Origin: Patiria miniata
Lineage: Eukaryota
Direction: 5' to 3'
DNA length: 64,000 nucleotides
Assembly: GCF_015706575.1 (NCBI RefSeq)
Contig: NW_024037060.1
Coordinates: forward strand, 945,983 to 1,009,982
Shown here: piece by piece, positions 5,773 through 57,674 of the stretch
Position numbering within the stretch: position 1 is the stretch's first letter
Layout: each line of letters begins with the position of its first letter
Notes under the pieces: generated by a model
Database searches by the model: none
Told to the model about the DNA's origin: nothing
The model's input: only the letters and a program-made list of their open reading frames with translations
Program-made: the position numbers and the translations under genes

Positions 5773-5849
5773 CAGAAGTAATCGTAGCTTATAACAATTC
5801 TATCCGGTCTTCCCCTTGCGCCGAGGTCACGCAAGGCCGATTCGTGGGT
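5773..5849 (-). CDS. Candidate 77-nt exon (THESALRDLGARGRPDRIVISYDYF) in a phase compatible with the 6316..6399 exon.
   Basis: The acceptor is gttttcttttcag|ACCCACGAA and the donor is TTCTG|GTGAGTC. Only the phase-0 frame is open. An AATAAA (plus-strand tttatt at 5720..5725) lies about 50 nt downstream. Confidence 0.25.
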
Positions 5850-9820: not shown

Positions 9821-10330
9821 CTGAAAAGAACGGGAAAAAAATTAATATATCAGCTTCAATTTACAGATGCCATTGAAATCAAAGCAAAACTGGATAACGC
9901 TGTGTGGCGAAGTAACAACAACTTGTCAATACCCCTTTTTGAGATACTTCAACTAGGAGGGTGTATTTGGTTCGCTTCAACTCATTTCCACGTATGACAC
10001 TTTTGTCTTAACTCAAGTTTTAAAGTCGTCTCACCCCATCATGGCTGCAATGATCTCAAACAGGCTAGCAAACACTTTTATTGACAATTGTGTGGACAGG
10101 GTACACAAACCATTTATTAAGTTGCCTCAGGGGAATGAACCTGAATATAAGTGCACGTCTTGGCGTTCAAGTCCTTAATTAATGTCCCCTTTTTGACAGT
10201 TGACGGCGTGCTTGTGTACAACGTCCATACTGTTCATATATCAGAAGGATATTAAGATATCTTGTTTTAATTATTGGGTGTATTAGTTCCATTGGTATTG
10301 CGTAATTAAACTTGATAACAAAACACGTAC

Positions 10331-13300
10331 CAATCAAATTTGTAGCTGTCACAGTTGTGATTGCTGGATTGAGAGGCGTAGTGACTTCTGAGGTGGTTTC
10401 CAACTTCTCCGTGGTGGCTGCCAATGTTGATGTTGCAAATGATGATGGGTTGCCAGGAGTCGTAGTCTGGACAGTAGAGGTTGCCATTGTAGATATCAAG
10501 CGTAGAGATGTTGCTTCAGAAATAGTACCAGCTTGTTGAGTGCTAGTTAAGTGAGACGGAATTAGACTAGTGGTCGCCTCTTCTGTTGACGTTACTTTGC
10601 TTGTTGCAGGACTGACTGAAGTGGCAAACTGCATAGTGCTTCCTACTGTAGATAACACGTCTGGTGTTGTTTGATCGATTGTAGTTGCCAATTGATCAGT
10701 GCTTGTTATGACAGTGGAGGCAAGTTCTTCCGATGAAGACTCCAGAGTTGTACCAGATTTCTCCGTTGTTTCGAAAACAGTTGTTACAACGGCTTGAGAT
10801 GTAGGATACAATGTAGTGTCTTCCTTCTCTGTTGAAGGTGGAATATTTGTCGTTTGTGCCTCTGTTGTCGGCTCAAGGGTTGATGGAATGATACTTGTAG
10901 CATCTTGATTCGTGGTAGCCACCTCTGTTGACGCTTCTTTGGATGTTGCCTGATTGGTCATACTACCAACCTCCGTAGTGGGCTCTATCGTGGATAACAA
11001 GTCTTGTGTTGTTTTATCGATTGTAGTTGCTGCTTGATCAGTGCTTGTTATGACAGTGGAGGTGAGATCCTCTGTTGAGGATTCCAGAGTTGTAACATCC
11101 GTTGTCTCGAAAACAGTTGTTACAACTGTTTGGGATGTAGGATACAATGTAGTGTCTTCCTTCTCTGTTGAAGGTGGAATATTTGTCGTTTGTGCCTCTG
11201 TTGTCGGCTCAAGGGTTGATGGAATGATACGTGTAGCATCCTGATTCGTGGTAGCCACCTCTGTTGACGCCTCTTTGGATGTTGCCTGATTGGTCGTAGT
11301 ACCAACCTCCGTAGTGCCTTCTATCGTGGATAACAAGTCTGGTGTTGTTTGATCGATACTAGTTGCTGCTTGTTCAGTGCTTGTTATGACAGTGGAGGCG
11401 AGATCCTCTGTTGAAGATTCCAGAGTTGTACCATATTGCTCCGTTGTCTTGAAAACAGTTGTTGCATCTGCTTGAGATATAGGATACAATGTAGTGTCTT
11501 CCTCCTCTGTTGTAGCTGCAATATTGGTCGTTTGTGCATCTGTTGTCGGTTCAAGGGTTGATGGAATGAGACTTGTAGCATCCTGATTCGTGGTAGCCAC
11601 CTCTGTCGACGCTTCTTTGGATGTTACCGGATTGGCCGTAGTACCAACCTCCGTAGTGCCTCCTGCTGTGGATAACAAGTCTTGTGTTGTTTGATCGATT
11701 CTAGTTGCTGCTTGTTCAGTGCTTGTTATGACAGTGGAGGCGAGATCCTCTGTTGAAGATTCCAGAGTTGTAACATCCGTTGTCTCGAAAACTGTTGTTG
11801 CATCTGCTTGAGATGTAGGATACAATGTAGTGCCTTCCTTCTCTGTTGTAAGTGGAATATTTGTCGTTTGTGCCTCTGTTGTCGGTTCAAGGGTTGATGG
11901 AATGATACTTGTAGCATCCTGATTCGTGGTAGCCACCTCTGTTGACGCTTCTTTGGATGTTGCCTGATTGGTCGTACTACCAACCTCCGTAGTGGGCTCT
12001 ATCGTGGATAATAAGTCTGGTGTTGTTTTATCGATTATAGTTGCTGCTTGTTCAGTGCTTGTTATGACAGTGGAGGCGAGATCCTCTGTTGAAGATTCCA
12101 GAGTTGTAACATCCGTTGTCTCGAAAACAGTTGTTACCGCTGCTTGAGATATAGGATACAATGTAGTGTCTTCCTCCTCTGTTGTAAGTGGAATATTTGT
12201 CGTTTGTGCCTCTGTTGTCGGTTCAAGGGTTGATGGAATGATACTTGTAGCATCCTGATTCGTGGTAGCCACCTCTGTTGACGCTTCTTTGGATGTTGCC
12301 TGATTGGTCGTACTACCAACCTCCGTAGTGGGCTCTATCGTGGATAACAAGTCTTGTGTTGTTTGATCGATAGCAGTTGCTTCTTGTTCAGTGTTTGTTA
12401 TGACAGTGGAGGCGAGATCCTCTGTTGAAGATTCCAGAGTCGTACCATATTGCTCCGTTGTCTCGAAAACAGTTGTTGCATCTGCTTGAGATATAGGATA
12501 CAATGTAGTGTCTTCCTCCTCTGTTGTAAGTGGAATATTTGTCGTTTGTGCCTCTGTTGTCGGTTCAAGGGTTGATGGAATGAGACTTGTAGCATCCTGA
12601 TTCGTGGTAGCCACCTCTGTCGACGCTTCTTTGGATGTTACCGGATTGGCCGAAGTACCAACCTCCGTAGTGCCTCCTGCTGTGGATAACAAGTCTTGTG
12701 TTGTTTGATCGATACTAGTTGCTGCTTGTTCAGTGCTTGTTATGACAGTGGAGGCGAGATCCTCTGTTGTAGATTCTAGAGTTGTAACATCCGTTGTCTC
12801 GAAAACAGTTGTTACAGCTGCTTGAGATGTAGGATACAATGTAGTGCCTTCCTTCTCTGTTGTAAGTGGAATATTTGTCGTTTGTGCCTCTGTTGTCGGT
12901 TCAAGGGTTGATGGAATGAGACTTGTATCATCCTGATTCGTGGTAGCCACCTCTGTTGACGTTTCTTTGGATGTTGCCTGATTGATCGTACTACCAACCT
13001 CCGTAGTGGGCTCTATCGTGGATAACATTTCAGGTGTTGTTTTATCGATTGTAGTTGCTGCTTGTTCAGTGCTTGTTATGACAGTGGAGGCGAGATCCTC
13101 TGTTGAAGATTCCAGAGTTGTACCAGATTTCTCCGTTGTCTCGAAAACTGTTGTTGCATCTGCTTGAGATGTAGGATACAATGTAGTGTCTTCCTCCTCT
13201 GTTGTAGCTGCAATATTGGTCGTTTGTGCCTCAGTTGTCGGTTCAAGGGTTGATGGTATGAGACTTGTAGCATCCTGATTCGTGGTAGCCACCTCTGTCG

Positions 13301-16300
13301 ACGCTTCTTTGGATGTTACCTGATTGGCCGTAGTACCAACCTCCGTAGTGCCTCGTGCTGTGGATAACAAGTTTAGTGTTGTTTGCTCGATACTAGTTGC
13401 TGCTTGTTCAGTGCTTGTTATGACAGTGGAGGTGAGATCCTCTGTTGAAGATTCCAGAGTTGTAACATCCGTTGTCTCGAAAATAGTTGTTACAACTGCT
13501 TGAGATGTAGGATACAATGTAGATCCTTCCTTCTCTGTTGTAAGTGGAATATTTGTCGTTTGTGCCTCTGTTGTCGGTTCAAGGGTTGATGGAATGATAC
13601 TTGTAGCATCCTGATTCGTGGTAGCCACCTCTGTTGACGCTTCTTTTGAAGTTACCGGATTGGCCGTAGTACCAACCTCCGTAGTGCCTCCTGCTGTGGA
13701 TAACAAGTCCTGTGTTGTTTGATCGATAGTAGTTGCTTCTTGTTCAGTGCTTGTTATGACAGTGGATACGAGATCCTCTGTTGAAGATTCCAGAGTTGTA
13801 CCAGATTTCTCCGTTGTCTCGAAAACTGTTGTTGCATCTGCTTGAGATGTAGGATACAATGTAGTGTCTTCCTCCTCTGTTGTAGCTGCAATATAGGTCG
13901 TTTGTGCCTCAGTTGTCGGTTCAAGGGTTGATGGAATGAGACTTGTAGCATCCTCATTCGTGGTGGCCACCTCTGTCGACGCTTCTTTGGATGTTACCGG
14001 ATTGGCCGTACTACCAACCTCCGTAGTGCCTTCTATCGTGGATAACAAGTCTGGTGTTGTTTGATCGATACTAGTAGCTGCTTGTTCAGTGCTTGTTATG
14101 ACAGTGGAGGCGAGATCCTCTGTTGATGATTCCAGAGTTGTAACATCCGTTGTCTGGAAAACAGTTGTAACAGCTGCTTGGGATGTAGGATACAATGTAG
14201 TGCCTTCCTTGTCTGTTGTAAGTGGAATATTTGTCGTTTGTGCCTCTGTTGTCGGTTCAAGGGTTGATGGAATGATACTTGTAGCATCCTGATTCGTGGT
14301 AGCCACCTCTGTTGATGCTTCTTTGGAAGTTACCGGATTGGCCGTAGTACCAACCTCCGTAGTGCCTCCTGCTGTGGATAACAAGTATTGTGTTGTTTGA
14401 TCGATTGTAGTTGCTTCTTGTTCAGTGCTTGTTATGACAGTGGAGGCGAGATCCTCTGTTGAAGATTCCAGAGTTGTACCAGATTTCTCCGTTGTCTCGA
14501 AAACTGTTGTTGCATCTGCTTGAGATGTAGGATACAATGTAGTGTCTTCCTCCTCTGTTGTAGCTGCAATATTGGTCGTTTGTGCCTCAGTTGTCGGTTC
14601 AAGGGTTGATGGTATGAGACTTGTAGCATCCTGATTCGTGGTAGCCACCTCTGTCGACGCTTCTTTGGATGTTACCTGATTGGCCGTACTACCAACCTCC
14701 GTAGTGCCTCGTGCTGTGGATAACGAGTCTAGTGTTGTTTGCTCGATACTAGTTGCTGCTTGTTCAGTGCTTGTTATGACAGTGGAGGCAAGATCCTCTG
14801 TTGAAGATTCCAGAGTTGTAACATCCGTTGTCTCGAAAACAGTTGTTACAGCTGCTTGAGATGTAGGATACAATGTAGATCCTTCCTTCTCTGTTGTAAG
14901 TGGAATATTTGTCGTTTGTGCCTCTGTTGTCGGTTCAAGGGTTGATGGAATGATACTTGTAGCATCCTGATTCGTGGTAGCCACCTCTGTTGACGCTTCT
15001 TTGGAAGTTACCGGATTGGCCGTAGTACCAACCTCCGTAGTGCCTCCTGCTGTGGATAACAAGTCCTGTGTTGTTTGATCGATAGTAGTTGCTTCTTGTT
15101 CAGTGCTTGTTATGACAGTGGAGGCGAGATCCTCTGTTGAAGATTCCAGAGTTGTACCAGATTTCTCCGTTGTCTCGAAAACTGTTGTTGCATCTGCTTG
15201 AGATGTAGGATACAATGTAGTGTCTTCCTCCTCTGTTGTAGCTGCAATATAGGTCGTTTGTGCCTCAGTTGTCGGTTCAAGGGTTGATGGAATGAGACTT
15301 GTAGCATCCTCATTCGTGGTGGCCACCTCTGTCGACGCTTCTTTGGATGTTACCGGATTGGCCGTAGTACCAACCTCCGTAGTGCCTTCTATCGTGGATA
15401 ACAAGTCTGGTGTTGTTTGATCGATACTAGTTGCTGCTTGTTCAGTGCTTGTTATGACAGTGGAGGCAAGATCCTCTGTTGAAGATTCCAGAGTTGTAAC
15501 ATCCGTTGTCTGGAAAACAGTTGTAACAGCTGCTTGAGATGTAGGATACAATGTAGTGCCTTCCTTGTCTGTTGTAAGTGGAATATTTGTCGTTTGTGCC
15601 TCTGTTGTCGGTTCAAGGGTTGATGGAATGATACTTGTAGCATCCTGATTCGTGGTAGCCACCTCTGTTGACGCTTCTTTGGATGTTGCCTCATTGGTCG
15701 TACTACCAACCTCCGTAGTTGGCTCTATCGTGGATAATAAGTCTGGTGTTGTTTTATCGATTGTAGTTGCTGCTTGTTCAGTGCTTGTTATGACAGTGGA
15801 GGCGAGATCCTCTGTTGAAGATTCCAGAGTTGTAACATCCGTTGTCTCGAAAACAGTTGTTACCGCTGCTTGAGATGTAGGATACAATGTAGTGCCTTCC
15901 TTTTCTGTTGTAAGTGGAATATTTGTCGTTTGTGCCTCTGTTGTCGGTTCAAGGGTTGATGGAATGATACTTGTAGCATCCTGATTCGTGGTAGCCACCT
16001 CTGTTGATGCTTCTTTGGAAGTTACCGGATTGGCCGTAGTACCAACCTCCGTAGTGCCTCCTGCTGTGGATAACAAGTATTGTGTTGTTTGATCGATTGT
16101 AGTTGCTTCTTGTTCAGTGCTTGTTATGACAGTGGAGGCGAGATCCTCTGTTGAAGATTCCAGAGTTGTACCAGATTTCTCCGTTGTCTCGAAAACTGTT
16201 GTTGCATCTGCTTGAGATGTAGGATACAATGTAGTGTCTTCCTCCTCTGTTGTAGCTGCAATATTGGTCGTTTGTGCCTCAGTTGAAGGTTCAAGGGTTG

Positions 16301-19300
16301 ATGGTATGAGACTTGTAGCATCCTGATTCGTGGTAGCCACCTCTGTCGACGCTTCTTTGGATGTTACCTGATTGGCCGTAGTACCAACCTCCGTAGTGCC
16401 TTGTGCTGTGGATAACAAGTCTAGTGTTGTTTGCTCGATACTAGTTGCTGCTTGTTCAGTGCTTGTTATGACAGTGGAGGCAAGATCCTCTGTTGAAGAT
16501 TCCAGAGTTGTAACATCCGTTGTCTCGAAAACAGTTGTTACCGCTGCTTGAGATGTAGGATACAATGTAGATCCTTCCTTCTCTGTTGTAAGTGGAATAT
16601 TTGTCGTTTGTGCCTCTGTTGTCGGTTCAAGGGTTGATGGAATGATACTTGTAGCATCCTGATTCGTGGTAGCCACCTCTGTTGACGCTTCTTTGGATGT
16701 TACCGGATTGGCCGTAGTACCAACCTCCGTAGTGCCTTCTATCGTGGATAACAAGTCTTGTGTTGTTTGATCGATTGTAGTTGCTTCTTGTTCAGTGCTT
16801 GTTATTACAGTGGAGGCGAGATCCTCTGTTGAAGATTCCAGAGTTGTACCAGATTTCTCCGTTGTCTCGAAAACTGTTGTTCCATCTGCTTGAGATGTAG
16901 GATACAATGTAGTGTCTTCCTCCTCTGTTGTAGCTGCAATATTGGTCGTTTGTGCCTCAGTTGTCGGTTCAACGGTTGATGGAATGATACTTGTAGCATC
17001 CTGATTCGTGGTAGCCTCCTCTGTCGACGCTTCTTTGGATGTTACCGGATTGGCCGTAGTACCAACCTCCGTAGTGCCTTCTATCGTGGATAACAAGTCT
17101 TGTGTTGTTTGATCGATAGTAGTTGCTTCTTGTTCAGTGCTTGTTATGACAGTGGAGGCGAGATCCTCTGTTGAAGATTCCAGAGTTGTACCAGATTTCT
17201 CCGTTGTCTCGAAAACTGTTGTTGCATCTTCTTGAGATGTAGGATACAATGTAGTGTCTTCCTCCTCTGTTGTAGCTGCAATATAGGTCGTTTGTGTCTC
17301 AGTTGTCGGTTCAAGGGTTGATGGAATGAGACTTGTAGCATCCTCATTCGTGGTGGCCACCTCTGTCGACGCTTCTTCGGATGTTACCGGATTGGCCGTA
17401 GTACCAACCTCCGTAGTGCCTTTTATCGTGGATAACAAGTCTGGTGTTGTTTGATCGATACTAGTTGCTGCTTGTTCAGTGCTTGTTATGACAGTGGAGG
17501 CAAGATCCTCTGTTGAAGATTCCAGAGTTGTAACATCCGTTGTCTCGAAAACAGTTGTTACAGCTGCTTGAGATGTAGGATACAATGTAGATCCTTCCTT
17601 CTCTGTTGTAAGTGGAACATTTGTCGTTTGTGCCTCTGTTGTCGGTTCAAGGGTTGATGGAATGATACTTGTAGCATCCTGATTCGTGGTAGCCACCTCT
17701 GTTGACGCTTCTTTGGAAGTTACCGGATTGGCCGTAGTACCAACCTCCGTAGTGCCTCCTGCTGTGGATAACAAGTCCTGTGTTGTTTGATCGATAGTAG
17801 TTGCTTCTTGTTCAGTGCTTGTTATGACAGTGGAGGCGAGATCCTCTGTTGAAGATTCCAGAGTTGTACCAGATTTCTCCGTTGTCTCGAAAACTGTTGT
17901 TGCATCTGCTTGAGATGTAGGATACAATGTAGTGTCTTCCTCCTCTGTTGTAGCTGCAATATAGGTCGTTTGTGCCTCAGTTGTCGGTTCAAGGGTTGAT
18001 GGAATGAGACTTGTAGCATCCTCATTCGTGGTGGCCACCTCTGTCGACGCTTCTTTGGATGTTACCGGATTGGCCGTAGTACCAACCTCCGTAGTGCCTT
18101 CTATCGTGGATAACAAGTCTGGTGTTGTTTGATCGATACTAGTTGCTGCTTGTTCAGTGCTTGTTATGACAGTGGAGGCGAGATCCTCTGTTGAAGATTC
18201 CAGAGTTGTAACATCCGTTGTCTGGAAAACAGTTGTAACAGCTGCTTGAGATGTAGGATACAATGTAGTGCCTTCCTCCTCTGTTGTAGCTGCAATATTG
18301 GTCGTTTGTGCCTCAGTTGTCGGTTCAAGGGTTGATGGTATGAGACTTGTAGCATCCTGATTCGTGGTAGCCACCTCTGTCGACGCTTCTTTGGATGTTA
18401 CCTGATTGGCCGTAGTACCAACCTCCGTAGTGCCTTGTGCTGTGGATAACAAGTCTAGTGTTGTTTGCTCGATACTAGTTGCTGCTTGTTCAGTGCTTGT
18501 TATGACAGTGGAGGCAAGATCCTCTGTTGAAGATTCCAGAGTTGTAACATCCGTTGTCTCGAAAACAGTTGTTACAGCTGCTTGAGATGTAGGATACAAT
18601 GTAGATCCTTCCTTCTCTGTTGTAAGTGGAATATTTGTCGTTTGTGCCTCTGTTGTCGGTTCAACGGTTGATGGAATGATACTTGTAGCATCCTGATTCG
18701 TGGTAGCCACCTCTGTTGACGCTTCTTTGGATGTTACCGGATTGGCCGTAGTACCAACCTCCGTAGTGCCTTCTATCGTGGATAACAAGTCTTGTGTTGT
18801 TTGATCGATTGTAGTTGCTTCTTGTTCAGTGCTTGTTATTACAGTGGAGGCGAGATCCTCTGTTGAAGATTCCAGAGTTGTACCAGATTTCTCCGTTGTC
18901 TCGAAAACTGTTGTTCCATCTGCTTGAGATGTAGGATACAATGTAGTGTCTTCCTCCTCTGTTGTAGCTGCAATATTGGTCGTTTGTGCCTCAGTTGTCG
19001 GTTCAACGGTTGATGGAATGATACTTGTAGCATCCTGATTCGTGGTAGCCTCCTCTGTCGACGCTTCTTTGGATGTTACCGGATTGGCCGTAGTACCAAC
19101 CTCCGTAGTGCCTTCTATCGTGGATAACAAGTCTTGTGTTGTTTGATCGATAGTAGTTGCTTCTTGTTCAGTGCTTGTTATGACAGTGGAGGCGAGATCC
19201 TCTGTTGAAGATTCCAGAGTTGTACCAGATTTCTCCGTTGTCTCGAAAACTGTTGTTGCATCTTCTTGAGATGTAGGATACAATGTAGTGTCTTCCTCCT

Positions 19301-46300: not shown

Positions 46301-49300
46301 TTATGACAGTGGAGGCGAGATCCTCTGTTGAAGATTCCAGAGTTGTACCATTTCTCGTTGTCTCGAAAACAGTTGTTACAGCTGCTTGAGATGTAGGATA
46401 CAATGTAGTGTCTTCCTCCTCTGTTGTAGCTGCAATATTGGTCGTTTGTGCCTCAGTTGTCGGTTCAAGGGTTGATGGAATGAGACTTGTAGCATCCTGA
46501 TTCGTGGTAGCCACCTCTGTTGACGCTTCTTTGGATGTTACCGGATTGCCCGTAGTACCAACCTCCGTAGTGCCTCCTGCTGTGGATAACAAGTCTTGTG
46601 TTGTTTGATCGATACTAGTTGCTGCTTGTTCAGTGCTTGTTATGACAGTGGAGGCGAGATCCTCTGTTGAAGATTCCAGAGTTGTAACATCCGTTGTCTC
46701 GAAAACAGTTGTTACAGCTGCTTGAGATGTAGGATACAATGTAGTGCCTTCCTTCTCTGTTGTAAGTGGAATATTTGTCGTTTGTGCCTCTGTTGTCGGC
46801 TCAAGGGTTGATGGAATGATACTTGTAGCATCCTGATTCGTGGTAGCCACCTCTGTTGACGCTTCTTTGGATGTTGCCTGATTGGTCGTACTACCAACCT
46901 CCGTAGTGGGCTCTATCGTGGATAACAAGTCTTGTGTTGTTTGATCGATTGTAGTTGCTGCTTGTTCAGTGCTTGTTATGACAGTGGAGGCGAGATCCTC
47001 TGTTGAGGATTCCAGAGTTGTAACATCCGTTGTCTCGAAAACAGTTGTTACAGCTGCTTGTGATGTAGGATACAATGTAGTGCCTTCCTTCTCTGTTGTA
47101 GGTGGAATATTTGTCGTTTGTGCCTCTGTTGTCGGTTCAAGGGTTGATGGAATGATACTTGTAGCATCCTGATTTGTGGTAGATACCTCTGTTGACGCTT
47201 CTTTGGAAGTTACCGGATTGACCGTAGTACCAACCTCCGTAGTGCCTCCTGCTGTGGATAACAAGTCTTGTGTTGTTTGATCGATAGTAGTTGCTTCTTG
47301 TTCAGTGCTTGTTATGACAGTGGAGGCGAGATCCTCTGTTGAAGATTCCAGAGTTGTACCAGATTTCTCCGTTGTCTCGAAAACAGTTGTTACAACTGCT
47401 TGAGATGTAGGATACAATGTAGTGTCTTCCTCCTTTTTTGTAGCTGCAATATTGGTCGTTTGTGCCTCAGTTGTCGGTTCAAGGGTTGATGGAATGAGAC
47501 TTGTAGCATCCTGATTCGTGGTAGCCACCTCTGTTGACGCTTCTTTGGATGTTACCGGATTGCCCGTAGTACCAACCTCCGTAGTGCCTCCTGCTGTGGA
47601 TAACAAGTCTTGTGTTGTTTGATCGATAGTAGTTGCTGCTTGTTCAGTGCTTGTTATGACAGTGGAGGCGAGATCCTCTGTTGAAGATTCCAGAGTTGTA
47701 ACATCCGTTGTCTCGAAAACAGTTGTTACAGCTGTTTGAGATGTAGGATACAATGTAGTGCCTTCCTTCTCTGTTGTAAGTGGAATATTTGTCGTTTGTG
47801 CCTCTGTTGTCGGCTCAAGGGTTGATGGAATGATACTTGTAGCATCCTGATTCGTGGTAGCCACCTCTGTTGACGCTTCTTTGGATGTTGCCTGATTGGT
47901 CGTACTACCAACCTCCGTAGTGGGCTCTATCGTGGATAACAAGTCTTGTGTTGTTTGATCGATTGTAGTTGCTGCTTGTTCAGTGCTTGTTATGACAGTG
48001 GAGGCGAGATCCTCTGTTGAAGATTCCAGAGTTGTAACATCCGTTGTCTCGAAAACAGTTGTTACATCTGCTTGAGATGTAGGATACAATGTAGTGCCTT
48101 CCTTCTCTGTTGTAGGTGGAATATTTGTCGTTTGTGCCTCTGTTGTCGGTTCAAGGGTTGATGGAATGATACTTGTAGCATCCTGATTTGTGGTAGATAC
48201 CTCTGTTGACGCTTCTTTGGAAGTTACCGGATTGACCGTAGTACCAACCTCCGTAGTGCCTCCTGCTGTGGATAACAAGTCTTGTGTTGTTTGATCGATA
48301 GTAGTTGCTTCTTGTTCAGTGCTTGTTATGACAGTGGAGGCGAGATCCTCTGTTGAAGATTCCAGAGTTGTACCAGATTTCTCCGTTGTCTCGAAAACAG
48401 TTGTTACAACTGCTTGAGATGTAGGATACAATGTAGTGTCTTCCTCCTTTGTTGTAGCTGCAATATTTGTCGTTTGTGCCTCAGTTGTCGGTTCAAGGGT
48501 TGATGGAATGAGACTTGTAGCATCCTGATTCGTGGTAGCCACCTCTGTTGACGCTTCTTTGGATGTTACCGGATTGCCCGTAGTACCAACCTCCGTAGTG
48601 CCTCCTGCTGTGGATAACAAGTCTTGTGTTGTTTGATCGATAGTAGTTGCTGCTTGTTCAGTGCTTGTTATGACAGTGGAGGCGAGATCCTCTGTTGAAG
48701 ATTCCAGAGTTGTAACATCCGTTGTCTCGAAAACAGTTGTTACAACTGTTTGAGATGTAGGATACAATGTAGTGTCTTCCTTCTCTGTTGAAGGTGGAAT
48801 ATTTGTCGTTTGTGCCTCTGTTGTCGGTTCAAGGGTTGATGGAATGATACTTGTAGCATCCTGATTCGTGGTAGCCACCTCTGTTGACGCTTCTTTGGAT
48901 GTTGCCTGATTGGTCGTACTACCAACCTCCGTAGTGGGCTCTATCGTGGATAACAAGTCTTGTGTTGTTTGATCGATTGTAGTTGCTGCTTGTTCAGTGC
49001 TTGTTATGACAGTGGAGGCGAGATCCTCTGTTGAGGATTCCAGAGTTGTAACATCCGTTGTCTCGAAAACAGTTGTTACATCTGCTTGTGATGTAGGATA
49101 CAATGTAGTGCCTTCCTTCTCTGTTGTAGGTGGAATATTTGTCGTTTGTGCCTCTGTTGTCGGTTCAAGGGTTGATGGAATGATACTTGTAGCATCCTGA
49201 TTCGTGGTAGCCACCTCTGTTGACGCTTCTTTGGAAGTTACCGGATTGACCGTAGTACCAACCTCCGTAGTGCCTCCTGCTGTGGATAACAAGTCTTGTG

Positions 49301-52300
49301 TTGTTTGATCGATAGTAGTTGCTTCTTGTTCAGTGCTTGTTATGACAGTGGAGGCGAGATCCTCTGTTGAAGATTCCAGAGTTGTACCATCTCTGTTGTC
49401 TCGAAAACAGTTGTTACAGCTGCTTGAGATGTAGGATACAATGTAGTGCCTTCCTCCTCTGTTGTAGTGCAATATTGGTCGTTTGTGCCTCTGTTGTCGG
49501 TTCAAGGGTTGATGGAATGATACTTGTAGCATCCTGATTCGTGGTAGCCACCTCTGTTGACGCTTCTTTGGATGTTACCGGATTGCCGTACTACCAACCT
49601 CCGTAGTGCCTCCTGCTGTGGATAACAAGTCTTGTGTTGTTTGATCGATAGTAGTTGCTGCTTGTTCAGTGCTTGTTATGACAGTGGAGGCGAGATCCTC
49701 TGTTGAAGATTCCAGAGTTGTAACATCCGTTGTCTCGAAAACAGTTGTTACAGCTGCTTGAGATGTAGGATACAATGTAGTGCCTTCCTTCTCTGTTGTA
49801 AGTGGAATATTTGTCGTTTGTGCCTCTGTTGTCGGTTCAAGGGTTGATGGAATGATACTTGTAGCATCCTGATTCGTGGTAGCCACCTCTGTTGACGCTT
49901 CTTTGGATGTTGCCTGATTGGTCGTACTACCAACCTCCGTAGTGGGCTCTATCGTGGATAACAAGTCTTGTGTTGTTTGATCGATAGTAGTTGCTGCTTG
50001 TTCAGTGCTTGTTATGACAGTGGAGGCGAGATCCTCTGTTGAGGATTCCAGAGTTGTAACATCCGTTGTCTCGAAAACAGTTGTTACAGCTGCTTGAGAT
50101 GTAGGATACAATGTAGTGCCTTCCTTCTCTGTTGTAAGTGGAATATTTGTCGTTTGTGCCTCTGTTGTCGGTTCAAGGGTTGATGAAATGATACTTGTAG
50201 CATCCTGATTCGTGGTAGATACCTCTGTTGACGCTCCTTTGGAAGTTGCCTGATTGGTCGTACTACCAACCTCCGTAGTGGGCTCTATCGTGGATAACAA
50301 GTCTTGTGTTGTTTGATCGATAGTAGTTGCTGCTTGTTCAGTGCTTGTTATGACAGTGGAGGCGAGATCCTCTGTTGAAGGTTCCAGAGTTGTAACATCC
50401 GTTGTCTCGAAAACAGTTGTTACAGCTGCTTGAGATGTAGGATACAATGTAGTGCCTTCCTTTTCTGTTGTAAGTGGAATATTTGTCGTTTGTGTCCTCT
50501 GTTGTCGGTTCAAGGGTTGATGAATGATACTTGTAGCATCCTGATTCGTGGTAGATACCTCTGTTGACGCTCCTTTGGATGTTGCCTGATTGGTCGTACT
50601 ACCAACCTCCGTAGTGGGCTCTATCGTGGATAACAAGTCTTGTGTTGTTTGATCGATTGTAGTTGCTTCTTGTTCAGTGCTTGTTATGACAGTGGAGGCG
50701 AGATCCTCTGTTGAAGATTCCAGAGTTGTACCAGATTTCTCCGTTGTCTCGAAAACAGTTGTCACAACTGATTGAGATGTAGGATGCAATGTTGTGTCTT
50801 CCTCCTTTGTTGTAGCTGCAATATTGGTCGTTTGTGCCTCAGTTGTCGGTTCAAGGGTTGATGGAATGAGACTTGTAGCATCCTGATTCGTGGTAGCCCC
50901 CTCTGTTGACGCTTCTTTGGATGTTACCGGATTGCCCGTAGTACCAACCTCGTAGTGCCTCCTGCTGTGGATAACAAGTCTTGTGTTGTTTGATCGATAC
51001 TAGTTGCTGCTTGTTCAGTGCTTGTTATGACAGTGGAGGCGAGATCCTCTGTTGAAGATTCCAGAGTTGTAACATCCGTTGTCTCGAAAACAGTTGTTAC
51101 AGCTGTTTGAGATGTAGGATACAATGTAGTGCCTTCCTTCTCTGTTGTAAGTGGAATATTTGTCGTTTGTGCCTCTGTTGTCGGCTCAAGGGTTGATGGA
51201 ATGATACTTGTAGCATCCTGATTCGTGGTAGCCACCTCTGTTGACGCTTCTTTGGATGTTGCCTGATTGGTCGTACTACCAACCTCCGTAGTGGGCTCTA
51301 TCGTGGATAACAAGTCTTGTGTTGTTTGATCGATTGTAGTTGCTGCTTGTTCAGTGCTTGTTATGACAGTGGAGGCGAGATCCTCTGTTGAGGATTCCAG
51401 AGTTGTAACATCCGTTGTCTCGAAAACAGTTGTTACATCTGCTTGTGATGTAGGATACAATGTGGTGCCTTCCTTCTCTGTTGTAGGTGGAATATTTGTC
51501 GTTTGTGCCTCTGTTGTCGGTTCAAGGGTTGATGGAATGATACTTGTAGCATCCTGATTTGTGGTAGATACCTCTGTTGACCCTTCTTTGGAAGTTACCG
51601 GATTGACCGTAGTACCAACCTCCGTAGTGCCTCCTGCTGTGGATAACAAGTCTTGTGTTGTTTGATCGATAGTAGTTGCTTCTTGTTCAGTGCTTGTTAT
51701 GACAGTGGAGGCGAATCCTCTGTTGAAGATTCCAGAGTTGTACCAGATTTCTCCGTTGTCTCGAAAACAGTTGTCACAACTGATTGAGATGTAGGATGCA
51801 ATGTAGTGTCTTCCTCCTTTGTTGTAGCTGCAATATTGGTCGTTTGTGCCTCAGTGTTCGGTTCAAGGGTTGATGGAATGAGACTTGTAGCATCCTGATT
51901 CGTGGTAGCCACCTCTGTTGACGCTTCTTTGGAAGTTACCGGATTGGCCGTAGTACCAACCTCCGTAGTGCCTCCTGCTGTGGATAACAAGTCTTGTGTT
52001 GTTTGATCGATAGTAGTTGCTTCTTGTCCAGTGCTTGTTATGACAGTGGAGGCGAGATCCTCTGTTGAAGATTCCAGAGTTGTACCAGATTTCTCCGTTG
52101 TCTCAAAAACTGTTGTTGCATCTGCTTGAGATGTAGGATACAATGTAGTGTCTTCCTCCTCTGTTGTAGCTTCAATATTGGTCGTTTGTGCCTCAGTTGT
52201 CGGTTCAAGAGTTGACGGAATGAGACTCGTAGCATCCTGATTTGTGGTAGCCACTTCTGTTGACGCTTCTTTGGATGTTGCCGGATTGACCGTTGTACCA

Positions 52301-55300
52301 ACCTCCGTAGTGCCTTCTATCGTGGAAAACAAGTCTTGTGTTGTTTGATCGATTGTAGTTGCTGCTTGTTCAGTGCTTGTTATGACAGTGGAGGCGAGAT
52401 CCTCCGTTGAAGGATCCAGAGTTGTACCAGATTTCTCCGTTGTCTCGAAAACTGTTGTTGCATCTGCTTGAGATGTAGGATACAATGTAGTGCCTTCCTT
52501 CTCTTTTGTAGCTTCAATATTGGTCGTTTGTGCCTCAGTTGTCGGTTCAAGGGTTGATGGAATGAGACTTGTAGCATCCTGATTCGTGGTAGCCACCTCT
52601 GTTGACGCTTCTTTGGATGTTACCGGATTGGCCGAAGTACCAACCTCCGTAGTGCCTCCTGCTGTGGATAACAAGTCTTGTGTTGTTTGATCGATAGTAG
52701 TTGCTGCTTGTAGAGTGCTTGTTATGACAGTGGAGGCGAGATCCTCTGTTGAAGATTCCCGAGTTGTAACATCCGTTGTCTCGAAAACTGTTGTTACAGC
52801 GGCTTGAGATGTTGGATACAATGTAGTGCCTTCCTTCTCTGTTGTAAGTGGAATATTTGTCGTTTGTGCCTCTGTTGTCGGTTCAAGGGTTGATGGAATG
52901 ATACTAGTGGCATCCTGATTCGTGGTAGCCACCTCTGTCGACGCTTCTTTGGATGTTACTGGATTAACCGTAGTACCAACCTCCGTAGTACCTGTGGATA
53001 ACAAGTGTTGTGTTGTTTGATCCATTGTAGTTGCTCCTTGTTCAGTGCTTGTTATGAGAGAGGAGGCGAGATCCTCTGTTGAAGGTTCCAGAGTTGTACC
53101 AGATTTCTCTGTTGTCTCGAAAACAGTTGCTACAACTGCTTTCTCCGTTGTCTCGAAAACAGTTGTTACAACTGAGTGAGATGTAGGATGCATAGTAGTG
53201 TCTACCTTCTCTGTTGAAGGTGGAATATTTGTCGTTTGTGCCTCTGTTGTCGGTTCAAGGGTTGATGGAATGATACTTGTAGCATCCTGATTCGTGGTAG
53301 CCACCTCTGTTGACGCTTCCTTGGATGTTGCCTGATTGGTCGTACTACCAACCTCCGTAGTGGGCTCTATCGTGGATAACAAGTCTTGTGTTGTTTTATC
53401 GATTGTAGTTGTTGCTTGTTCAGTGCTTGTTATGACAGTGGAGGCGAGATCCTCTGTTGAGGATTCCAGAGTTGTAACATCCGTTGTCTCGAAAACAGTT
53501 GTTACAACTGTTTGAGATGTACGATACAATGTATTGTCTTCCTTCTCTGTTGAAGGTGGAATATTTTTCGTTTGTGCCTTTGTTGACGGTTCAAGAGTTG
53601 ACGGAATGATACTCGTAGCATCCTGATTCGTGGTAGCCACTTCTGTTGACGCTTCTTTGGATGTTGCCGGATTGGCCGTAGTACCAACCTCCGTAGTGCC
53701 TTCTATCGTGGATAACAAGTCTAGTGTTGTTTGATCGATTGTAGTTGCTGCTTGTTCAGTGCTTGTTATGACAGTGGAGGCGAGATCCTCCGTTGAAGGC
53801 TCCAGAGTTGTACCAGATTTCTCCGTTGTCTCGAAAACTGTTGTTGCATCTGCTTGAGATGTAGGATACAATGTAGTGTCTTCCTCCTTTGTTGTAGCTG
53901 CAATATTGGTCGTTTGTGCCTCAGTTGTCGGTTCAAGGGTTGATGGAATGAGACTTGTAGCATCCTGATTCGTGGTAGCCACCTCTGTTGACGCTTCTTT
54001 GGATGTTACCGGATTGGCCGTAGTACCAACCTCCGTAGTGCCTTCTATCGTGGATAACAAGTCTTGTGTTGTTTGATCGATAGTAGTTGCTGCTTGTTCA
54101 GTGCTTGTTATGACAGTGGAGGCGAGATCCTCTGTTGAAGATTCCAGAGTTGTAACATCCGTTGTCTCGAAAACAGTTCTTACAGCGGCTTGAGATGTTG
54201 GATACAATGTAGTGCCTTCCTTCTCTGTTGTAAGTCGAATATGTGTCGTTTGTGCCTCTGTTGTCGGTTCCTGGGTTGATGGAATGATACTAGTGGCATC
54301 CTGATTCGTGGTAGCCACCTCTGTCGACGCTTCTTTGGATGTTACTGGATTAACCGTAGTACCAACCTCCGTAGTACCTCCTACTGTGGATAACAAGTCT
54401 TGTGTTGTTTGATCCATTGTAGTTGCTCCTTGTTCAGTGCTTGCTATGAGAGTGGAGGCGAGATCCTCTGTTGAAGGTTCCAGAGTTGTACCAGATTTCT
54501 CTGTTGTCTCGAAGACAGTTGTTACAACTGCTTTCTCCGTTGTCTCGAAAACAGTTGTTACAACTGATTGAGATGTAGGATGCAAGTAGTGTCTTCCTTC
54601 TCTGTTGAAGGTGGAATATTTGTCGTTTGTGCCTCTGTTGTCGGTTCAAGGGTTGATGGAATGAGACTTGTAGCATCCTGATTCGTGGTAGCCACCTCTG
54701 TTGACGCTTCTTTGGATGTTACTGGATTGGCCGTAGTACCAACCTCCGTAGTACCTCCTACTGTGGATAACAAGTTTTTTGTTGTTTGATCCATTGTAGT
54801 TGCTCCTTGTTCAGTGCTTGTTATGAGAGTGGAGGCGAGATCCTCTGTTGAAGGTTCCAGAGTTGTATCAGATTTCTCTGTTGTCTCGAAAACAGTTGTT
54901 ACAACTGCTTTCTCCGTTGTCTCGAAAACAGTTGTTACAACTGAGTGAGATGTAGGATGCATAGTAGTGTCTTCCTTCTCTGTTGAAGGTGGAATATTTG
55001 TCGTTTGTGCCTCTGTTGTCGGCTCAAGGGTTGATGGAATGATACTTGTAGCATCCTGATTCGTGGTAGCCACCTCTGTTGACGCTTCTTTGGATGTTGC
55101 CTGATTGGTCGTACTACCAACCTCCGTAGTGGGCTCTATCGTGGATAACAAGTCTTGTGTTGTTTTATCGATTGTAGTTGCTGCTTGTTCAGTGCTTGTT
55201 ATGACAGTGGAGTCGAGATCCTCTGTTGAGGATTCCAGAGTTGTAACATCCGTTGTCTCGAAAACAGTTGTTACAACTGTTTGAGATGTAGGATACAATG

Positions 55301-57674
55301 TAGTGTCTTCCTTCTCTGTTAAAGGTGGAATATTTGTCGTTTGTGCCTCTGTTGTCGGTTCAAGGGTTGATGGAATGATACTGGTAGCATCCTGATTCGT
55401 GGTAGCCACCTCTGTTGACGCTTCTTTGGATGTTACCAGATTGGCCGTAGTACCAACCTCCGTAGTACCTCCTACTGTGGTTAACAAGTCTTGTGTTGTT
55501 TGATCCATTGTAGTTGCTCCTTGTTCAGTGCTTGTTATGAGAGTGGAGGCGAGATCCTCTGTTGAAGGTTCCAGAGTTGTACCAGATTTCTCTGTTGTCT
55601 CGAAAACAGTTGTTAGAACTGCTTTCTCCGTTGTCTCGAAAACAGTTGTTACAACTGATTGAGATGTAGGATGTAATGTAGTGGCTTCCCTCTCTGTTGA
55701 AGGTAGAATATTTGTCGTTTGTGCCTCTGTTGTCGGCTCAAGGGTTGATGGAATGAGACTCGTAGCATCCTGATTCGTGGTAGCCTCCTCTGTTGACGCT
55801 TCTTTGGATGTTGCCAGATTGGACGTAGTACCAACCTCCGTAGTGCCTCCTACTGTGGATAACAAGTATTGTGTTGTTTGATCGATTGTAGTTGCTCCTT
55901 GTTCAGTGCTTGTTATGACAGTGGAGGCGAGATCTTCTGTTGAAGGTCGAAGAGTTGTAAAATATTTCTCCGTTGTCTCGAAAACAGTTGTGACAACTGC
56001 TTTCTCCGTTGTCTCGAAAACAGTTGTTACAACTGCTTTCTCCGTTGTCTCGAAAACAGTTGTTACAACTGATTGAGATGTAGGATGCAATGTAGTGTCT
56101 TCCTTCTCTGTTGAAGGTGGAATATTTGTCGTTTGTGCCTCTGTTGTCGGCTCAAGGGTTGATGGAATGAGACTTGTGGCATCGTGATTCGTGGTAGCCT
56201 GCTCCGTTGACGCTTCTTTGGATGTTGCCGGATTGGGCGTAGTACCAACCTTCGTAGTGGGCTCTATCGTGGATAACAAGTCTTGTGTTGTTTGATCGAT
56301 TGTAGTTGCTGCTTGTTCAGTGCTTGTTATGACAGTGGAGGCGAGTGCTTCCGTTGAAGGCTCCAGAGTTGTACCAGATTTTTCCGTTGTCTCGAAAACT
56401 GTTGTTGCAACTACTGGAGATGTAGGATACAATGTAGTGCCTTCCTTCTCTGATGTGGGTGGGATATGTGTCGTTTGTGCCTGTGTTGTCGCTTCAAGGG
56501 TTGATGGAATGAGACTTGTAGCATCCTGATTCGTGGTAGCCACCTCTGTTGACGCTTCTTTGGATGTTGCCGGATTGACCGTACTACCAACCTCCGTATT
56601 GGTCTCTATCGTGGATAACAAGTCTTGTGTTGTTTTATCGATTGTAGTTGCTGCTTGTTCAGTGCTTGTTATGACAGTGGAGGCGAGATCCTCTGTTGAA
56701 GATTCCAGAGTTGAAACATCCGTTGTCTCGAAAATTGTTGTTGCAACTGCTTGAGATGTAGGATGCAATGTAGTGTCTTCCTTCTCTGTTGTAAGTGGAA
56801 TATTTGTCGTTTGTGCCTCTGTTGTCGGTTCAAGGGTTGATGGAATGAGACTTGTAGCATCCTGATTCGCGGTAGCCTCATCTGTTGACGCAACTTTGGT
56901 TGTTGCAAAATTGACTGTAGTGCCAACCCCCGTAGTGCCTCCTCCTGTAGATAACAAGTCTTGTGTTGTTTGATCGATTGTCGTGGCCACTTGTTCAGTG
57001 CTTGTTATGACAGTAGAAGCGAGGCCTTCTGTGGAAGACTGTAGAGTTGTACCAGATTTCTCCGTTGTCTCGAAAACTGTTGAAGTTCCTTCCTCGCTCT
57101 TTGAAAGAATAAAAGTTGAGTTCACTGTAATGCCATCCTCTTCATTGCTGATGACCGTAGATGGATTGAGTGTCGAGGAGAACTGCTCCGTTTCAACTGT
57201 CATTGTAGTTGCCACTGCGAGTGTGGTAGTATATTGCGTGGTATCTTCCTCTTCCGTCGTAGCTACACTTTTTGTTGTTGGTACATCTGTAGTTGCCGTG
57301 AGGACAGAGCTTTCTTCATTAAAAATTGTTGCTGATTGTGAAATCCCTGCATCTGTTCTCGAATTACCAGTTCTATCCTGCTGGCTGGTTACCGTTAATA
57401 AACTAATGGGTTTTATTGTGCGATCATCTGGTGTTGATGGATTCACAGAAGTTTCACTTCCTAGCGTTTGAGATGTTAGATCATTTCCCGTCGGAACAGT
57501 GTCATTTTTGTGCAGCGTGGTATCTGTTTGGGTAGTTCTTACGGCTTCCGTTGTTATGTCTGTGATGGTTGTGGTGCCTGAAGTTATGGTTGATGTTGTT
57601 TGAGCATCTGCGAAACTTGATTCTGTCATTGGGTATAGCAAAGATGCCACAGCCAACACTGTCCATATTGACAT
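10331..57674 (-). CDS. Giant central exon of a transmembrane mucin. It encodes the signal peptide, a unique Thr/Ser-rich N-terminus (about 235 aa), about 137 tandem 112/114-aa PTS repeats (consensus TTLESSTEDLASTVITSTEQAATTIDKTTPDLLSTIEPTTEVGSTTNQATSKEASTEVATTNQDATSIIPSTLEPTTEAQTTNIPLTTEKEGTTLYPTSQAAVTTVFETTDV) and a degenerate C-terminal repeat region. It ends at a GTACGT donor at 10330/10329. The frame is interrupted many times between about 23.5 and 54.6 kb.
   Basis: One minus-strand frame stays open for 13.4 kb (10179..23543, 4454 aa), and the same repeat continues through abutting ORFs up to 57791. The codon-level periodicity is 336 bp, with a 342-bp variant. Composition is about 30% Thr and about 10% Ser, with Glu/Ala/Pro also common, as expected for an O-glycosylated mucin domain. 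The N-terminus MSIWTVLAVASLLYPMTESSFA-DAQ has a signal-peptide n/h/c layout and a good Kozak context (ACAATGT). The donor GGTACGTG after ...AATTTGATTG leaves phase 1, which joins in frame to the next exon (G+AT = Asp of LIDECA). Confidence 0.75.
10560..57085 (-). repeat. Coding tandem repeat array with unit 336 bp (112 aa) or 342 bp (114 aa, TEKSG variant). There are about 137 copies spanning about 46.5 kb. Interior copies are more than 95% identical, and copies at both edges are degenerate.
   Basis: The array is directly visible in the sequence. For example, identical alternative-frame ORFs recur at 42668, 43004 and 43340 (336 bp apart) and at 21620 and 21956. Two unit subtypes are interleaved: A with ..STIEPTTEVGSTTNQA..TTVFETTDV and B with ..STAGGTTEVGTTANPV..TTVFETTEKSG. 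Confidence 0.95.
57609..57674 (-). other. Predicted initiator ATG (57672..57674) and 22-aa signal peptide MSIWTVLAVASLLYPMTESSFA.
   Basis: A short polar n-region is followed by a hydrophobic core (TVLAVASLLYP) and small residues before a probable cleavage site (SFA|DAQ). An upstream in-frame ATG at 57789..57791 would put this hydrophobic segment 40 residues into the protein, so the 57672..57674 ATG is preferred. Confidence 0.5.

Follow-up and report, generated by a model that had tools for sequence, protein, structure and literature searches.

The window analysed here is a stretch of 64,000 nt of Patiria miniata DNA, and its minus strand carries the features collected in Table 1, namely, a giant exon with a putative signal peptide, a short non-repetitive region and a long tandem array, and a set of smaller downstream exons that encode two EGF-like domains, an SEA domain, a transmembrane helix and a cytoplasmic tail. 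The coding part of the giant exon runs from an ATG at 57674, which opens the putative leader MSIWTVLAVASLLYPMTESSFA with small residues at positions -3 and -1, to a GT donor at 10330 in phase 1, and the join from this donor to the EGF exon is the same as in the NCBI model LOC119729475. The original prediction had the array running on to a signal-peptide-bearing N-terminus at 57674, and the leader read there is consistent with this. A second in-frame ATG is found at 57791, 39 codons upstream, and a possible acceptor (ttattttccacag/GG) near 57866, to which the giant exon may extend at its 5' end. The N-terminal region behind the leader holds two degenerate unit fragments (weak profile matches at 57294-57019), matches no Pfam family and has no homologue among the protein clusters searched. 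Pfam gave no match for six flanking ORFs, and the window as a whole, scanned with Rfam and for tRNAs, gave none either.

Table 1. Features of the locus, given as positions in the window
Feature	Position	Strand	Basis or remark
Giant exon, coding part (ATG to splice donor)	10331..57674	-	47,344 nt, ~15,781 codons once frame-corrected
Putative signal peptide MSIWTVLAVASLLYPMTESSFA	57609..57674	-	Hydrophobic core then S-F-A, read from sequence
Thr/Ser-rich non-repetitive N-terminal region, ~197 aa	57018..57608	-	Translation
Tandem array, 137 units	10566..57017	-	Tandem Repeats Finder and profile segmentation
Uninterrupted frame at the array 5' end, 1078 codons	54561..57794	-	ORF listing
Central zone with all 37 frame-breaking indels, most homogeneous part	23247..54833	-	Unit profile
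Uninterrupted frame at the array 3' end, 13.4 kb	10331..23558	-	ORF and stop counts
First EGF-like domain exon (DECALFLDNCDRVVQECIDQQIGYTCECRTGYTLDSTGKCT)	9698..9820	-	AG/GT boundaries, Pfam EGF_CA, identical to LOC119729475
SEA-domain exon 1	8775..8917	-	Splice boundaries, Pfam, AlphaFold, structural matches
SEA-domain exon 2, with FAPG-SIKAEY motif	8394..8616	-	Splice boundaries, Pfam, AlphaFold, alignment
Gly-Ser codons at the SEA autoproteolysis position	8536..8541	-	Family alignment, model
Second EGF-like domain exon	7952..8092	-	Splice boundaries, Pfam, family alignment
Exon with transmembrane segment, RRRKKRRK stop-transfer and first tail part	7390..7787	-	Boundaries, model helix 215-255
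Transmembrane helix IIIIASSVTAAVLLIIALVLVVV, 23 hydrophobic residues	7690..7758	-	Sequence, AlphaFold helix
Cytoplasmic-tail exon	6939..7037	-	AG/GT boundaries, exact match to LOC119729475
Cytoplasmic-tail exon	6316..6399	-	Match to LOC119729475
Last located coding exon (...RIVISYDYF)	5773..5849	-	Match to LOC119729475

A homogeneous array of acidic, Thr/Ser-rich units

Tandem Repeats Finder reported a single array with a 336-bp period at 10570..54533 (129.7 copies, 87% matches), above which the array goes on to ~57080 as variants of 342-414 bp. Profile segmentation of the minus strand divided the whole into 137 head-to-tail units (136 full and one half), which reproduces the count of ~137 repeats of 112/114 aa proposed from the letters. 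Seventy units are 336 bp and 31 are 342 bp long, eight are in-frame length variants (378 bp in four, and 414, 375, 339 and 330 bp in one each), and 27 of the 137 have a length that is not divisible by 3. The consensus peptide reads STVITSTEQAATTIDQTTQDLLSTI..TTLESSTEDLA. After frame correction the array contains 29.5% Thr and 9.8% Ser (39.3% together), 15.4% Glu+Asp and 2.4% Lys+Arg, giving a net charge of about -2000, as expected from the predicted product with ~40% Thr+Ser that would yet be acidic. Long Thr/Ser-rich repeats, which mark a mucin domain, were thus found in a 47.3-kb stretch without intron-like interruptions, with a Pro content (4.4%) that is low compared with classical PTS domains and only four Cys in the whole array. 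Within the window, base composition is strongly strand-asymmetric across the array only.

The repeat unit matched no Pfam family, SEA included. AlphaFold gave two units, from a low-diversity alignment, a mean pLDDT of 35.5 with all 226 residues below 50, whereas the C-terminal module reached 90 at equal alignment depth, and the repeat domain is therefore predicted to be disordered rather than folded. A protein with folded SEA repeats of the MUC16 type was considered and rejected, since the unit matches no SEA domain and its predicted state is disorder; the P. miniata protein has a single SEA domain, and its likeness to human MUC16 lies in a comparable total size and in an SEA domain that is structurally closest to those of MUC16.

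Identity to the consensus is mostly 0.96-0.98 in the central zone against 0.93-0.95 at the array edges. Of the human mucins examined, about half likewise have more degenerate repeats at the array edges; the list of these does not include MUC3A, MUC12 or MUC17 (PMC13345508). Unequal exchange of units, as in mucin repeat arrays, would produce such a homogeneous centre and diverged edges as well as duplications of multi-unit blocks. In a unit-by-unit comparison, units are 93-100% and multi-unit blocks 99.2-99.7% identical to each other, differences that lie below the raw error rate of continuous long reads, and the copy number comes from one such assembly of a heterozygous animal. The gene could hence be real and its 47-kb length a product of assembly, the array being much shorter, longer or a mosaic of two haplotypes, which is regarded as somewhat unlikely. 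The removal of overlapping contigs from the draft, which took it from 1075 to 714 Mb (PMC13317027), and the several-fold allele variation of human membrane-mucin arrays (PMC13345508) would fit such a reading, but the longest exact repeat inside the array is 801 nt, with no perfectly identical multi-kb blocks, the gradient from edge to centre is orderly and free of junction artefacts, and the input DNA of 48-145 kb (PMC13317027) makes spanning reads plausible.

Frame-breaking indels and the continuity of the exon

An ORF at 10179..23543 on the minus strand encodes 4454 aa over 13.4 kb, within a frame that is open at 10182-23558 and passes the 3' end of the array; no stop occurs in this coding frame, against 119-409 in the other five, so the uninterrupted frame of 13.4 kb that had been claimed is there. 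The open stretches at the two ends of the array share one frame (net shift 0 mod 3, a 1-in-3 outcome by chance), and all length changes within them are multiples of 3 (6, 36 and 72 nt). Between them, the frame of the deposited sequence hops across all three minus-strand frames, leaving 13 ORFs of at least 300 aa in the window, and translation from 57674 stops at 54561. In all, 29 of the 137 units carry frame-breaking indels, 37 in number, of which 33 are deletions and 4 are insertions, and the statement that repeat length is always a multiple of 3 fails accordingly between 54833 and 23247. The single ~47-kb exon stands as a stretch from the ATG at 57674 to the GT donor at 10330, but it is continuous only after ~37 frame corrections; with these, the whole protein is predicted to have ~16,200 aa, close to the ~16,000 aa first proposed.

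The assembly in question, P. miniata v3.0, was built by Canu, run with default settings, from PacBio Sequel continuous long reads (125x); the passages of its description that were consulted mention no polishing step (PMC13317027). One-base deletions stand in a homopolymer context in 22 of 29 cases, compared with 43% expected (p = 4e-4). One of the indel sites reads TATTCCACTTACAACAG when intact and TATTCCACTACAACAG with the deletion, at 37610, 32554 and 30198. The whole set of 37 indels falls in the central zone of 31.6 kb, for which a uniform spread would give P = 3e-7. When units are projected on the consensus codons, none of the 137 contains a stop codon, and among 241 unique substitution variants none makes a stop, where 8.0 would be expected in total, 4.3 of them in the central zone. 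Synonymous variants among units number 78, against 63 expected. Taking together the homopolymer preference, the confinement to the most homogeneous zone and the absence of stops after frame correction, the indels are likely to be long-read consensus errors and not decay, in which case the real exon is continuous.

If the frameshifts were real, the locus would be a decaying or truncated allele that yields at most a secreted N-terminal fragment of ~1,040 aa, with the remaining array untranslated. The 37 indels are, after all, present in the deposited sequence, and public sets contain no protein or transcript-derived sequence from the array. In addition, the same unit position is hit repeatedly in the case of five one-base deletions, and two of the units concerned, u071 and u078, are part of a pair of duplicated blocks, so that some frameshifts could be real mutations spread by duplication. 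Neutral decay, however, should be independent of position and should leave nonsense substitutions, contrary to the central clustering and the missing stops, while the 33:4 excess of deletions and the homopolymer enrichment are signatures of error. Units with a broken frame show no greater divergence than intact ones (identity to the best sister unit 0.989, against 0.992 and 0.988), and the 3' exons are intact and annotated. Real decay is regarded as distinctly improbable.

A far remoter alternative is a satellite array without coding function that merely sits beside the small gene of an EGF-SEA-EGF membrane protein. By chance alone, a given frame would be free of stops over one 336-bp unit with p = 0.003, copying would then keep it open, and the annotated gene model does leave the array out. 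The idea was nevertheless rejected, given the 13.4-kb open frame, the lack of stops after projection and the avoidance of stop codons in between-unit variation. It is also at odds with unit lengths and indels that are all multiples of 3 in the two open end stretches, with a frame that starts at the putative signal peptide and joins the EGF exon in the splice phase required, with the strand asymmetry of composition across the array only, and with relatives that have Ser/Thr-rich regions at the same position.

The coding array thus supported is nearly absent from public annotation. The sole public protein for the locus, the 530-aa product of LOC119729475, has its first residues in the last repeat and covers ~3% of the predicted protein. 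A word-indexed search of 5.8 billion protein clusters, RNA-assembly-derived sets included, gave no match to the N-terminus or to two repeat units and thereby no orthologue, so that the suspicion of a probably unannotated structure proved justified. The giant gene seems to have been missed because ~37 small indels, probably assembly errors, break its frame, and the case shows how continuous-long-read assemblies hide giant mucin genes.

The downstream exons and a membrane-anchored design

The spliced product of the downstream exons is 100% identical to the NCBI model LOC119729475, and it seems that another exon further 3' completes its stop codon. In Pfam, the SEA domain (37 bits, cut-off 26.4) is flanked on each side by an EGF-like domain (EGF_CA 41.5 bits, EGF_3 34.2 bits). 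The AlphaFold model of the C-terminal module has a pLDDT of 90. Foldseek gave seven matches to it at E <= 0.001, every one an SEA domain, with MUC16 and type II membrane proteases supplying the best; target-normalised TM-scores are 0.68-0.80 for five stand-alone SEA chains and 0.16-0.53 for two longer chains. A single-sequence phmmer search of the PDB reached EGF domains only, and the family profile of the module reached the SEA domains of agrin, TMPRSS11D, a MUC16 homologue and MUC1. In the family alignment, G115-S116 is invariant in all 12 members and lies in the turn between model strands 104-113 and 117-126; this Gly-Ser within FAPG-SIKAEY aligns in register with FRPG-SVVV, the cleavage site of MUC1. 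Of the 12 EGF cysteines, 11 are invariant (five in the first and six in the second domain) and C3 is present in at least 90%. The NCBI model gives a cytoplasmic tail of ~185 aa that ends in ...RIVISYDYF and not in S/T-x-hydrophobic, i.e., without a class I PDZ-binding C-terminus.

With these exons adjoining the array on its 3' side, with repeats that are predicted to be disordered and with mucin-named relatives, the initial reading as a giant acidic Thr/Ser-rich cell-surface mucin gains support. The protein is an SEA-type membrane-anchored mucin with the overall design of human MUC3/MUC12/MUC17, and it is probable that one minus-strand gene encodes it as a type I transmembrane protein of ~16,200 residues with a continuous giant exon. 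A gel-forming mucin was rejected because Cys-rich domains are absent: the N- and C-terminal parts contain no VWD/C8/TIL or cystine-knot Pfam families, and the array has only its four Cys.

By analogy with known SEA mucins, the SEA domain would fold in the ER and undergo self-cleavage at the Gly-Ser bond, after which the two subunits would stay associated through non-covalent contacts, and ~6,000 Ser/Thr residues may be O-glycosylated in the Golgi. Mucin brushes extend ~0.25 nm per residue, and the acidic domain could accordingly become a stiff bottle-brush a few micrometres long. Projecting from an apical membrane, such a brush would be hydrated and carry negative charge, serving as a barrier or as a lubricating glycocalyx, from which force may shed the outer subunit at the SEA junction. 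The protein is a candidate main component of a sea-star epithelial glycocalyx, e.g., that of the epidermis, tube feet or everted stomach. P. miniata serves as a model in developmental work, and genetic tools exist for it.

Relatives among deuterostomes and other SEA proteins

The same C-terminal module preceded by a Ser/Thr-rich N-terminus was found in Acanthaster, Lytechinus, Strongylocentrotus, Holothuria, Asterias, hemichordates and amphioxus, and several of these proteins have been auto-named mucin-3A-like, mucin-17 or mucin-5AC-like. Of the 20 relatives whose source was looked up, 18 come from echinoderms, hemichordates or amphioxus, two are of unknown origin and none is from a vertebrate. 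Three echinoderm proteins, XP_022088479.1 (mucin-5AC-like, Acanthaster planci), XP_041479383.1 (mucin-3A-like, Lytechinus variegatus) and XP_011671279.2 (mucin-3A, Strongylocentrotus purpuratus), resemble the P. miniata protein in having a Ser/Thr-rich N-terminus (34-35% Ser+Thr, 0-8 Cys) followed by EGF-SEA-EGF-TM, and in the family alignment their modules are 28-34% identical to that of P. miniata with the Gly-Ser invariant. They are, however, only 965-2,393 aa long, compared with ~16,200, and their repeats and cytoplasmic tails are unrelated, so that they are probably paralogues and not orthologues; a literature search found no experimental work on these three proteins.

Human MUC3A, MUC3B, MUC12 and MUC17 consist of a signal peptide, a huge repeat exon, an SEA domain with a Gly-Ser motif, a transmembrane segment and a tail (PMC9578598), and EGF domains flank the SEA domain in transmembrane mucins in general (PMC9080433). 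The P. miniata gene shares the layout of these four, from the putative leader over one huge repeat exon to the SEA domain, transmembrane segment and tail. EGF domains flank the SEA domain in MUC3A, MUC3B, MUC12 and MUC17 as well. The size of its exon is comparable to that of human MUC3B, with a PTS exon of 39,267 bp (PMC9578598), and of MUC12, with alleles of 4,677-23,080 aa (PMC13345508). Two features set it apart from the human MUC3 cluster at 7q22, namely, an unrelated repeat (112/114 aa, acidic, low in Pro) and a C-terminus without the class I PDZ-binding motif that is conserved in that cluster (PMC9578598).

Among invertebrates, the P. miniata gene would rank with the largest mucins on record, and its repeat exon with the largest single exons that code for protein. 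The mucin literature states a vertebrate origin for SEA-type membrane mucins, and with the echinoderm, hemichordate and amphioxus relatives this origin becomes testable. It is tentatively suggested, as a possibility that falls short of being the favoured one, that the EGF-SEA-EGF-TM design and a repeat exon of MUC12 scale were present in the deuterostome ancestor and that the relatives are true homologues of MUC3/12/13/17. SEA-type membrane mucin-like proteins outside vertebrates have already been reported, as the Mucin1-like proteins of the sea anemone Actinia tenebrosa combine PTS-rich regions with a signal peptide, an SEA domain and a transmembrane domain (PMC9080433), but in contrast to the P. 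miniata protein they are far smaller, lack flanking EGF domains and are known from transcriptomes only. Another echinoderm system is the 63-kDa flagellar membrane protein of sea urchin sperm, the founding "S" of SEA, which has 470 aa and is GPI-anchored (PMC2119707). EGF repeats and an SEA domain are likewise present in this echinoderm surface protein, but it has no giant array, and its anchor differs from the transmembrane helix, basic stop-transfer and ~185-aa tail of P. miniata. A Holothuria protein that carries the name of this 63-kDa flagellar protein matches the whole P. miniata module and has a Thr-rich N-terminus.

Extent and composition of the repeat array

A single tandem array of one basic period was detected by Tandem Repeats Finder, and variants of 342-414 bp beyond 54533 prolong it to about 57080. 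Segmentation of the minus strand with a profile built from in-frame units gave 137 units, i.e., 70 of 336 bp, 31 of 342 bp, eight that vary in length but stay in frame (378 bp in four, and 414, 375, 339, and 330 bp in one each), a half unit, and 27 with lengths that are not a multiple of three. GC skew of +0.13 to +0.18 and AT skew of -0.24 to -0.31 were found over 10-58 kb only, and values in the flanks are mostly about zero, so that strand asymmetry is restricted to the array region. In the 13.4-kb open stretch, the coding frame holds no stop codons versus 119-409 in the other five frames. The ATG at 57674 begins MSIWTVLAVASLLYPMTESSFA, and the 10331 end of the giant exon adjoins GTACGT. Together, the array calls, the ORFs, this ATG, and the GT therefore bear out the coordinates, repeat unit, copy number, and 13.4-kb frame given in the original prediction; the array exists and is correctly delimited. 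The signal-peptide ATG is a putative start, and an upstream 5' exon is possible. Another ATG in the same frame occurs 39 codons upstream, at 57791, and a good 3' splice-acceptor-like sequence (ttattttccacag/GG) is found near 57866 (interval 57791-57870).

After frame correction, the array consists of 29.5% Thr, 9.8% Ser, 10.8% Glu, 4.6% Asp, 4.4% Pro, and 2.4% Lys+Arg, with Cys nearly absent and a net charge of about -2000. No Pfam family was found in two units, and their AlphaFold model, made from an alignment of little diversity, had a mean pLDDT of 35.5 with all residues below 50 and almost no secondary structure, versus 90 for the C-terminal module with an equally deep alignment. The repeat is therefore predicted to be a disordered mucin-type domain, the low-diversity alignment weakening this test somewhat, and repeats folded as domains, as the SEA repeats of MUC16 are, were rejected.

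The array shows the usual dynamics of mucin-type repeats: units are more alike in the centre than at the edges, a weak three-unit periodicity is present, and blocks of 3-7 units are duplicated at 99.2-99.7% identity. No perfectly identical multi-kb block was found in the array, the longest exact repeat being 801 nt. A 36-nt segment encoding AVVTTVFETTEK is doubled or tripled inside nine units (e.g., 55965-56071), seven of which are clean 378/377/414-bp units; the other two, 375 and 370 bp long, have inserts of 33 and 29 nt. This repeat within a repeat clusters toward the array's 5' end.

The C-terminal module and its relatives

Below 10331, five short minus-strand exons with AG/GT boundaries continue in phase with the giant exon and encode an EGF-SEA-EGF-TM module. 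Their spliced product is 100% identical to the sole public protein at the locus, "uncharacterized protein LOC119729475 [Patiria miniata]" (530 aa), which confirms every inferred splice junction, starts at a Met within the last half-unit (MQFATSV...), and represents about 3% of the predicted full-length product. No match among 5.8 billion protein clusters was obtained with the unique N-terminal 219 aa or with a query of two repeat units. The structure is thus unannotated, as had been anticipated, and the array sequence appears to be private to the P. miniata lineage. At 5773-5775, where the NCBI protein ends with ...DYF, the genomic sequence runs on as TG/GTGAGT; a splice to an additional 3' exon seems to supply the rest of the stop codon.

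Coordinates of features at the probable P. miniata mucin locus
Feature	Coordinates	Strand	Observation
Giant exon	57674..10331	minus	47.3 kb
Tandem array	10570..54533		period 336, 129.7 copies, 87% matches
ORF	10179..23543		4454 aa, 13.4 kb
ORF	54558..57791		1077 aa
Units with duplicated 36-nt segment	56339-53065; 41610-41236; 38875-38506; 28730-28354; 23959-23582		n=9 in total
First EGF exon	9820..9698	minus	AG/GT; Pfam EGF_CA 41.5 bits
SEA domain, two exons	8917..8775 + 8616..8394	minus	Pfam SEA 37.0 bits, curated cut-off 26.4
Second EGF exon	8092..7952	minus	AG/GT boundaries
Transmembrane segment, then RRRKKRRK + tail	7787..7390	minus	AG/GT boundaries
Three further tail exons	7037..6939; 6399..6316; 5849..5773	minus	added by NCBI model

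The module structure was predicted from an alignment with 11 relatives (mean pLDDT 90). Against solved structures, Foldseek gave seven matches at E <= 0.001, every one of them a SEA domain: TMPRSS6, four MUC16 or MUC16-homologue entries, and a mouse transmembrane-protease SEA domain. TM-scores normalised to the target were 0.68-0.80 for five stand-alone SEA chains and 0.16-0.53 for two longer chains, and the rmsd was 2.6-2.9 Å in five matches and higher in the other two, 5.2 Å (NMR model 1ivz) and 7.6 Å (TMPRSS6). The alignment profile also matched SEA domains of agrin, TMPRSS11D, ADGRF1, the MUC16 homologue 1ivz, and MUC1 in the PDB. Gly115-Ser116 (FAPG/SIKAEY; codons 8541..8536) is invariant in 12 of 12 aligned proteins, lies in the predicted turn between strands 104-113 and 117-126, and aligns in register with FRPG/SVVV of MUC1, a comparison that serves as a register check only. 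The protein would presumably self-cleave at FAPG/SIKAEY. Self-cleavage at a Gly-Ser site is known for the SEA family (PMC9578598).

With the non-repetitive C-terminus as query, exhaustive HMMER searching of 1.84 billion representative proteins returned 604 matches at E <= 0.001, many of which cover the whole module as one stretch near the C-terminus. Sources were looked up for 20 of these: 18 came from echinoderms (Acanthaster, Lytechinus, Strongylocentrotus, Diadema, Holothuria, Asterias), hemichordates (Saccoglossus, Ptychodera, Glandiceps), or amphioxus, and two were of unknown origin. The family spans invertebrate deuterostomes and is unstudied there. Several relatives have Ser/Thr-rich, Cys-poor N-terminal regions, and automatic names include "mucin-5AC-like", "mucin-3A-like", "mucin-3A / mucin-17 / mucin-4", and "63 kDa sperm flagellar membrane protein". 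In other relatives (database proteins P0020 and P0047), the module is joined to NIDO and many EGF repeats in a hemichordate (MUC4-like) and to ZP domains in amphioxus; judged by these sequences, it looks like a mobile membrane-anchoring cassette of invertebrate deuterostomes. Module identity is 25-34%, and there is no obvious orthologue among the relatives. An unnamed 158-aa NCBI fragment (P0112; 36% identity) has the transmembrane segment and the tail motif GSQESLTERE (tail exon, 7390-7500) in common, a hint that the tail has a conserved function or that the fragment comes from another species' orthologue.

Frame breaks in the central zone

One open frame across the whole region, as originally proposed, is not present: from 54.6 to 23.5 kb, the peptide hops among all three minus-strand frames. 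Alignment of each unit to the consensus located 37 frame-breaking indels in 29 units, all within 54833-23247. This zone is the central 31.6 kb of an exon 47.3 kb long, a clustering with P = 3e-7 under a uniform distribution. Deletions outnumber insertions by 33 to four; 29 of the deletions remove one base, and in 22 of these the lost base adjoins an identical one, 43% of unit positions being in such runs (binomial p = 4e-4). Two apparent in-frame stops (49575-49577, 42246-42248) fall where the reading is briefly out of frame, between one indel and the next that compensates it.

Once projected onto consensus codons, all 137 units are free of stop codons, and no stop arises from any of the 241 distinct substitution variants, with 8.0 expected if random (Poisson P ~3e-4) and 4.3 expected in the central zone alone, where likewise none occurs. 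Identity to the consensus is mostly 0.96-0.98 in the central 31.6 kb versus 0.93-0.95 at the array edges, and identity to the nearest sister unit is 0.989 for frame-broken units versus 0.992 and 0.988 for intact ones. P. miniata v3.0 was built from PacBio Sequel continuous long reads (125x) with default Canu and Hi-C scaffolding, and the retrieved text of the assembly paper mentions no polishing step (PMC13317027). Several independent features thus make it likely that the frame breaks are consensus errors of the assembly and not decay. Certain deletions recur at one unit position (five times at one TT), and two units with the TT deletion belong to two blocks that are duplicates of each other. 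Hence a small number of frameshifts may be true mutations spread by duplication, or one systematic error may have occurred twice. Overall, assembly errors are the most probable cause of the broken central frame in the sequence as deposited.

Comparison with known mucins and flanking sequence

With the central indels taken as assembly errors, the gene probably encodes a SEA-type transmembrane mucin of about 16,200 aa, corresponding to a polypeptide of ~1.7 MDa. The expected giant, acidic, Thr/Ser-rich surface mucin agrees with the array composition and with the EGF-SEA-EGF-TM exons recognized by Pfam, the structure model, and the NCBI protein. Human MUC3A/3B, MUC12, and MUC17 have the same design, namely, a signal peptide, one very large repeat exon, SEA, a transmembrane helix, and a tail. 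In these mucins, EGF domains flank SEA. Flanking EGF domains are also described in general statements on transmembrane mucins that are not specific to these four (PMC9080433). The PTS exon of MUC3B measures 39,267 bp in the T2T human genome (PMC9578598), and the size of the P. miniata exon is not unprecedented. The P. miniata repeat is unrelated to those of the human proteins, acidic, and Pro-poor, and the end of the protein, SYDYF, is not a class I PDZ-binding motif. The sea-urchin 63-kDa sperm protein, a name source of the SEA domain, is small and GPI-anchored (PMC2119707). The P. miniata gene is a new, exceptionally large member among already known SEA-type transmembrane mucins.

In the flanking sequence, overlapping ORFs on both strands at 279-1112 encode peptides such as SHQGDHGSNPG and GFSPGPPVFLPPEK and have no Pfam match. 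They resemble an interspersed repeat of marine-invertebrate genomes. A short minus-strand ORF at 62791-63012 contains a low-complexity run of 11 prolines.
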